A program made the position numbers and the translations under genes. This document shows positions 41,115 to 41,429 of a stretch of DNA of 64,000 bases, one piece after another (position 1 is the first letter of the stretch; every line of letters begins with the position of its first letter). The notes beneath the pieces were generated by a model that did no database searches, was not told the origin of the DNA, and worked only from the letters and a program-made list of their open reading frames with translations. Source of the DNA: an uncultured Chlamydiae bacterium. GTDB taxonomy: Bacteria; Chlamydiota; Chlamydiia; Chlamydiales; JAJFMA01. The DNA lies in NCBI GenBank assembly GCA_963713615.1, contig CAVQMM010000001.1, positions 2,656,001-2,720,000 on the forward strand, given 5' to 3'.

Positions 41115-41143
41115 TTGACAAAAAATAACTGCATAGGTAAAAT
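41115..41143 (+). promoter_or_regulatory. Near-consensus sigma66/sigma70 promoter
   Basis: TTGACA-N17-TAAAAT; the predicted TSS at about 41150-41151 coincides with an ATG. Confidence 0.8.
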
Positions 41144-41150
41144 TGTGGCT

Positions 41151-41228
41151 ATGAAAGCAAAAACTCAGGTTCACATCCTCGCACCCTCGGTAGTCTTCGG
41201 CTCCATGTCCTGCTTGATGCGCGGCTAG
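41151..41228 (+). CDS. Putative leaderless leader peptide 1 (MKAKTQVHILAPSVVFGSMSCLMRG)
   Basis: ATG at the predicted TSS; C-terminal motif shared with the next sORF; the stop codon lies in an ATGCGC/GCGCAT hairpin. Confidence 0.55.
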   Translation: MKAKTQVHILAPSVVFGSMSCLMRG

Positions 41229-41297
41229 CGCATATCATTTTTTCCTCTTAGCCTCATTTTGTCCCAACTTAGTGGTTTTGAAAAAGCAGGAACCCAT

Positions 41298-41360
41298 ATG
41301 AAAAAAGCATATCAAAATATTTCGGTTTTTAGCGTAATGCACTCGATCATGCGCACTTAG
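41298..41360 (+). CDS. Putative leader peptide 2 (MKKAYQNISVFSVMHSIMRT)
   Basis: AGGA RBS; same VFxxMxx[LI]MRx-TAG ending and the same hairpin as peptide 1. Confidence 0.55.
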   Translation: MKKAYQNISVFSVMHSIMRT

Positions 41361-41429
41361 CGCATATAATCAATACCACTCCAGCGTTATTACATTTCGA
41401 ATATTTTATTAGAGGTTTATAATTATATC

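Follow-up and report, generated by a model that had tools for sequence, protein, structure and literature searches.

The window, a stretch of 64,000 nucleotides from the genome of an uncultured Chlamydiae bacterium, carries on its plus strand a short leader followed by two genes. A σ70-type promoter-like site, TTGACA-17-TAAAAT (41115–41143, plus strand; −10 hexamer TAAAAT at 41138–41143), was found with 11/12 matches, in agreement with the near-perfect promoter reported in a preliminary description of this DNA. The ATG of the first small upstream open reading frame, uORF1 (41151–41228, plus strand, 25 codons), starts 7 nt past the −10 hexamer, a spacing that is probably compatible with a leaderless start. 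The second, uORF2 (41298–41360, plus strand, 20 codons), is preceded by its own ribosome-binding site region (RBS; 41284–41291, plus strand), with AGGA 6 nt 5′ of the ATG; translations of both uORFs were as first described. Each uORF has two internal Met codons, at 41205 and 41217 in uORF1 and at 41337 and 41349 in uORF2, numbered −4 and 0 relative to the Met codon that opens the 5′ arm of a hairpin. As also described, both uORFs end with Met-Arg-x-UAG inside an ATGCGC-NNN-TAGCGCAT hairpin, with the stop codon in the loop. Hairpin 1 (41217–41233, plus strand) has 6 bp and a predicted stability of −9.6 kcal/mol; hairpin 2 (41349–41365, plus strand), likewise of 6 bp, has identical arms and a different loop. 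These two hairpins are the only occurrences of the 17-mer in the 3.97-Mb genome. The T-rich run noted earlier after hairpin 1 (5 T in 8 nt) has no equivalent after hairpin 2 (2 T in 8 nt). G-poor tracts with 2 G in 30 nt follow at 41235–41264 (C/U-rich) and 41367–41396, both on the plus strand, and are candidate Rho-loading sites. A single RNA run contained 11% of the sequence words and left 41024–42071 without coverage.

Directly 5′ of the promoter, at 40499–41000, lies a high-copy intergenic repeat, represented by 509 blastn pieces genome-wide, with copies of about 500 nt and 85–97% identity at at least 20 places; it is MITE/REP-like, with many inverted repeats. Elsewhere in the window, an IS110-family transposase gene (44623–45819) was found 3′ of the second downstream gene, and two adjacent genes for FAD-binding (PF01565) oxidoreductases of about 500 aa, apparent paralogues, occupy the minus strand at 31554–34606.

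The first downstream gene (41430–42821, plus strand) encodes a 463-aa long-form DUF62 (SAM hydroxide adenosyltransferase family) protein with domains PF01887 and PF20257 (SAM_HAT_N and SAM_HAT_C) and a signal-peptide-like N-terminus; it scores below the NCBIfam equivalog cut-offs. Its structural model has a pLDDT of 91.6, and the significant fold matches among those listed are DUF62, chlorinase and fluorinase structures. The long-form subfamily comprises about 60 proteins, mostly of 460–550 aa, with an insertion of about 150 residues, modelled with high confidence, between the two known domains. By a crude hydropathy rule a hydrophobic N-terminus is present in 48/53 long and 28/48 short forms, so this feature is not specific to the long form. 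The catalytic triad of DUF62 enzymes we take to be Asp-Arg-His. Residues D106 and H171 are invariant in 60/60 long forms. The triad Arg aligns to position 116, which is Arg in the window protein and Pro in 54/60 long forms, while the neighbouring R117 is invariant; because of the Pro at this position, SAM hydrolysis by the long form is not assured. DUF62 enzymes cleave SAM to methionine and adenosine, and the available part of PMC12120602 questions their physiological role.

The second gene (42840–44192, plus strand) encodes a 450-aa NSS-family (SNF) sodium-dependent transporter (PF00209), a likely neutral amino-acid importer. The closest solved relative is 4us3 (E 3e-89), presumably MhsT. Together with other leader-linked transporters it forms a clade that a tree of 33 rows separates, with support 99/96, from a widespread paralogue. 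TM1 of this clade reads GLASIVRF, compared with GLANIWRF or GLGSIWRF in most paralogues; a change in ion or substrate handling is possible, judged from sequence.

We searched upstream of orthologous DUF62 and NSS genes, as the preliminary description had proposed, for the combination of Met-containing uORF and hairpin. As a result, 15 elements were identified at 11 chlamydial-type loci. The doubling that had been taken as part of the attenuator holds in the window but is optional, since tandem pairs are present at 4/11 loci. With identical DNA counted once, the device precedes the long DUF62 gene at 9/9 loci with enough upstream DNA (loci L009, L012, L013 and L045, where upstream DNA is too short to judge, were left out). 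Stand-alone members of the leader-linked NSS clade (in genomes G001 and G160) have their own leader in 2/2 cases, and the hairpin was found at 0/25 readable loci of the NSS paralogue (one of 26 was unreadable). The long DUF62 itself is rare, being present in 4/61 relatives and 4/401 genomes of the phylum, and was also found in seven genome records and six metagenome contigs; a single DUF62 protein query of the genome contigs gave no relatives, and an alignment query did. No Met-rich uORF with a hairpin was seen upstream of metK (0/4) or of metG (0/4 genes with upstream DNA). In the order to which genome G408 belongs a short DUF62 occurs in 3/36 genomes; of the two further short DUF62 genes in this order, one has no leader and the other has no upstream DNA. 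DUF62 homologues of E. coli, Aeromonas and Enterococcus yielded no leader.

More distant DUF62 loci were also inspected: 63 were fetched, 54 were readable, and four had a small ORF with at least two internal Met codons. Two of these, L053 (labelled Gammaproteobacteria) and L018, have the device, giving 17 elements overall. L039 was rejected, the device not being present. At L071 (Omnitrophota) a small ORF of 45 codons, two of them internal Met codons, lies 139 nt 5′ of the DUF62 gene. The L053 DUF62 (2749–3660) is of a short signal-peptide type in which Phe replaces a conserved His (TFFGRD), and its close relatives are listed under Legionella, Aquicella and Helicobacter pylori.

Pattern scans of phylum genomes gave no further instance of the device. 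Among 401 genomes of the phylum 28 matches were obtained in 23 genomes, against six for a reversed-pattern control. Six of the 28 are known leaders and one lies antisense within a CDS of the source genome; the remaining 21 were set aside as chance matches, 16 overlapping long ORFs and five lacking the Met cluster and gene context. A variant pattern matched in 1/251 phylum genomes, at the known G001 leader. In viral contigs three pattern matches were obtained and rejected, one phage sequence lying antisense to the start of a CDS, and neither a match for the variant pattern nor a DUF62 relative was found there.

Two forms can be distinguished among the 15 elements. Type A (n=10) has the form AUG-YGC-NNN-UAG with the stop inside the loop, and a Met codon at −4 in 8/10 elements. 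Type B (n=5) reads Phe-Met-(Met)-Met-Pro, its arms are AUGCCC/GGGC, and the stop comes 6 or 11 codons further on. L053 and L018 are intermediate: they read Met-Met-Pro-stop, and the loop that contains this stop is closed by an AUGCCC/GGGCA stem, which a G-poor tract follows.

Promoter-like sites with at least 9/12 matches lie 5′ of the first uORF at 9/13 loci. The distance from the −10 hexamer to the AUG is 7–8 nt at 3/13 loci, the window locus included, which suggests, with 5′ ends predicted only, a leaderless start at just these three. The first uORF is without a recognisable Shine-Dalgarno sequence (SD) at several of the loci where the spacing would call for one, and uORF2 lacks a recognisable SD at 2/4 tandem loci. 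At L010 (2064–2084) there is a short out-of-frame ORF whose ATG precedes the start assigned to uORF1 by 4 nt and has the better spacing to an AGGA.

Conservation of the small ORFs was assessed through their frames. In 15/15 elements the hairpin AUG shares its frame, without an intervening stop, with a start codon 15–28 codons further 5′, versus 2.0 expected from dinucleotide shuffles, a figure that overstates independence because the loci are related. In either of the other two frames a start upstream of the hairpin was found in 0/15 elements. ATG triplets within 36 nt before the hairpin are distributed among the three frames as 27:0:0 in the 15 elements and as 31:0:0 in all 17. Over the 45 nt before the hairpin, mean anchored identity is 32% and the maximum 56%.

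Two near-identical inverted repeats 3′ of a promoter could form a DNA operator for a repressor, the reading frames being incidental, an alternative that the preliminary description had itself raised. This is contradicted by the frame statistics (15/15 and 27:0:0). In addition, the spacing between the arms, i.e. the loop, varies from 2 to 7 nt, U-G pairs occur, and there is one locus per genome, which makes an operator unlikely; we regard it as largely refuted and barely credible. The stem has the features of an RNA hairpin. It is 93% paired and shows double changes at 2/6 pairs (two of C-G to U-A and five of G-C to C-G), with a covariation of 0.279 that was reached in 0/500 shuffles, a comparison that likewise overstates independence given related loci. 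A search blind to ATG returned the hairpin as the most stable 20-nt window (the top two at tandem loci) at 11/11 loci.

The Met share of uORF residues is 11.7%, compared with 2.0% in long ORFs genome-wide. Because the elements were collected with an ATG-initial pattern, the Met at position 0 is to some extent built in. The VFxxMxx[LI]MRx motif put forward for the two uORFs of the window is indeed common to them, but across the 17 elements only Met is conserved. The residue at +1, after the hairpin Met, is Arg in eight elements, Pro in seven and Cys in two, tracking the covariation of the stem.

These features bear on whether the peptide itself could be the sensor, arresting the ribosome at UAG in response to high free Met or SAM in the manner of TnaC or SpeFL. 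An operon of enzyme and transporter resembles tnaCAB and speFL as presented in the available portion of PMC12360218, and in type A elements UAG follows the hairpin Met by three codons in 10/10 cases, with an invariant UA in an otherwise variable loop. Such a sensor is nevertheless unlikely because Met is the sole conserved residue, the changes at +1 being those listed above, and because the position of the stop varies: its distance from the hairpin Met is 2, 3, 6 or 11 codons. In 5/17 elements the stop is UAA, and the G of UAG is a base of the stem. We consider this reading improbable, and the suggestion that the leader senses SAM found no support.

A small unrecognised riboswitch for SAM or Met, or peptides acting in trans with Met enrichment as a by-product, would fit the SAM- and Met-related downstream genes and the conserved hairpin. 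However, Rfam covariance models at gathering score gave no matches within the window (SAM riboswitches, T-boxes and others), consistent with the earlier statement that no SAM riboswitch is visible; the conserved RNA spans just 14–19 nt, the whole leader of the window folds no better than shuffles (z −0.22), and the peptides share nothing except Met. Either possibility appears very remote.

Taken together, the reading frame, the enrichment of Met, the covariation of the stem and the strict linkage to DUF62/NSS genes strongly support a Met-codon leader-peptide device ahead of these genes, and sensing through the Met codons is, in our judgement, the probable function of the leader. The Met-responsive attenuator originally suggested is supported in part, as a Met-codon device on comparative grounds. 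That the hairpin generally acts as an intrinsic terminator is not supported.

A narrower reading is that, with the same Met sensor, the 6-bp hairpin might be a weak intrinsic terminator assisted by NusA/NusG, whose formation a ribosome on the 5′ arm would prevent; coupling could even reverse the sign, as with pyrBI, so that the genes are on when Met is plentiful. The Met codons overlap the 5′ arm, placed so that a stalled ribosome would cover it, and one terminator-like call was obtained on the plus strand, at hairpin 1. A U-tract adjoining the stem (at least 5 U in 8 nt) is present in 5/15 elements and TTTT within 10 nt of the hairpin in 9/15, which leaves room for a weak terminator. The adjacent U-tract is, however, missing in 10/15 elements, including uORF2 of the window and the G002 element (0/8). 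Moreover, the stop lies in the loop in 10/15 elements (in others sometimes beyond the hairpin), so that by geometry the ribosome would not yet have terminated when polymerase passes. The antiterminator and terminator structures of a classical attenuator were not recovered: for an antiterminator (2:3) partner, pairing of the 3′ arm with downstream RNA gave a median p of 0.58 with no value below 0.05 in 17 elements, and a separate downstream hairpin with a U-run below −5 kcal/mol was found in 1/17, i.e. there is no conserved intrinsic terminator (3:4). We hold termination at the hairpin itself to be unlikely.

Output after transcription would leave the sensor unchanged, the stalled ribosome freeing an RBS or shielding the U-rich tract from RNase. 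An 8-bp pairing is possible in the window between uORF1 (41208–41215) and the uORF2 RBS (−13.1 kcal/mol), uORF2 of G004 can pair with the RBS of its gene (−11.7 kcal/mol), and mycobacterial polycysteine leaders provide a precedent in the available text of 10.1101/834739. Yet in 15 elements cognate uORF–RBS pairing was no better than that of swapped pairs (permutation p 0.14), the tract gave p 0.87 against the RBS, and modelled stalling clearly raised RBS accessibility in 2/15 elements only. This output, too, we find doubtful, slightly more so than intrinsic termination.

The features general to the elements are the tract and an untranslated spacer. The 30 nt that follow the hairpin contain no more than 3 G in 15/15 elements, against 18% of 4647 upstream windows of the source genome, the only genome used for this comparison. 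Between +18 and +38 the composition is 3% G, 28% C and 46% U; the tract is U-rich rather than C-rich and is for that reason only a moderate rut candidate as judged by its composition. The spacer from the uORF stop to the next start is at least 64 nt in 16/17 elements, and Rho is encoded in 5/5 genomes tested. Rho-dependent output is favoured because the G-poor tract and the untranslated spacer are general, Rho is present, and known uORF cases offer an analogy. For Met-codon sensing combined with this output, which leans on that analogy as well as on sequence, we put the chances at about even.

The preferred, Rho-dependent reading would work as follows. The two uORFs would serve as a ribosome-based gauge of charged methionyl-tRNA, transcription continuing into the DUF62 and NSS genes only if Met is scarce. 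With Met plentiful, the ribosome would complete the uORF and depart, exposing the pyrimidine-rich uORF and tract, and Rho would terminate transcription within the 60–120-nt spacer. If Met runs short, a ribosome halted at the Met codons would hold the hairpin open and keep the loading site covered, and polymerase would read through. The hairpin is likely a pause or coupling element, comparable to the 1:2 hairpin of trpL, and a tandem arrangement would provide two successive checkpoints. Shortage of Met could also slow uORF initiation, which counts against a simple stalling view. A Met gauge is not an obvious design, given that Met also initiates all proteins; each unit occupies less than 150 nt.

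As to physiology, 0/5 genomes tested gave a match for the MetE, MetH or MetQ family and 4/5 for MetK (one of the five genomes is 79% complete). The simplest reading of these sequences is that Met shortage would induce an exported SAM hydrolase and an importer; the DUF62 protein would free methionine from SAM beyond the cytoplasm, and the NSS protein would bring it in. Met-codon control in auxotrophs, the export signal and the linked importer point to methionine scavenging. If so, DUF62 enzymes would serve nutrient scavenging and not (R)-SAM clean-up. The available part of PMC12120602 considers that removal of (R)-SAM may not be their physiological job, and 10.1101/2025.08.29.672840, as far as available, shows (R)-SAM specificity of DUF62 proteins in two archaea. 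The most complete version of our proposal, namely an undescribed class of stackable Met attenuators read by Rho, present in environmental chlamydiae and at least one gammaproteobacterium, and inducing an exported SAM hydrolase and dedicated importer with which a Met auxotroph harvests methionine from host SAM, is put forward tentatively, as a possibility short of an even chance.

Met cases may be included in the comparative attenuation surveys of the Lyubetsky and Gelfand groups. In the literature searched, which lay mostly outside subscription journals, no description of a methionine leader peptide and nothing on a chlamydial DUF62-NSS leader module was found, so that a conserved methionine-codon leader device is apparently unpublished. 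Several amino acids are known to control operons through leader peptides, and few attenuators in Chlamydiae have a known function, according to the accessible portion of PMC2965389.

The device resembles attenuators of the trpL type in that the control codons are found towards the end of a short uORF. In E. coli trpL, folded here for comparison, these codons likewise form part of the 5′ arm of a hairpin whose loop contains the stop, the arrangement of 10/15 elements. Other classical leader-peptide attenuators are hisL, pheL, thrL, leuL and ilvL. Unlike the trpL type, the device has Met as the control amino acid and units that can be stacked in tandem, and it is without the antiterminator (median p 0.58) and, in all elements except 1/17, without the downstream hairpin and U-run. 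With tnaC, speFL, mgtL, corL and cruR, an established class of uORF-gated Rho termination as presented in the available sections of PMC12360218, it shares a uORF, an untranslated pyrimidine-rich spacer, here with more U than C, and an operon for an enzyme or transporter, and in both a ribosome halted on the uORF would keep Rho off its site. In contrast to the tnaC/speFL class, sensing here is apparently by codons, through tRNA charging, and not by a conserved nascent peptide that binds a ligand; methionine is absent among the uORF-gated Rho cases in those sections. The nearest parallel in sulfur-amino-acid control is provided by the actinobacterial cysteine leaders, which, as far as PMC1262725 and 10.1101/834739 were available, also have runs of such codons near the stop and lack a classical terminator; they are often leaderless, as is suggested here at 3/13 loci. 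Control by Rho through polyY tracts has been proposed for them (PMC1262725, available part), while the mycobacterial Cys leader that was tested uses RBS sequestration (10.1101/834739, available part), a pairing that is not general here. The chlamydial-type leaders differ from them in reading Met instead of Cys and in possessing a conserved, covarying hairpin that overlaps the control codon.
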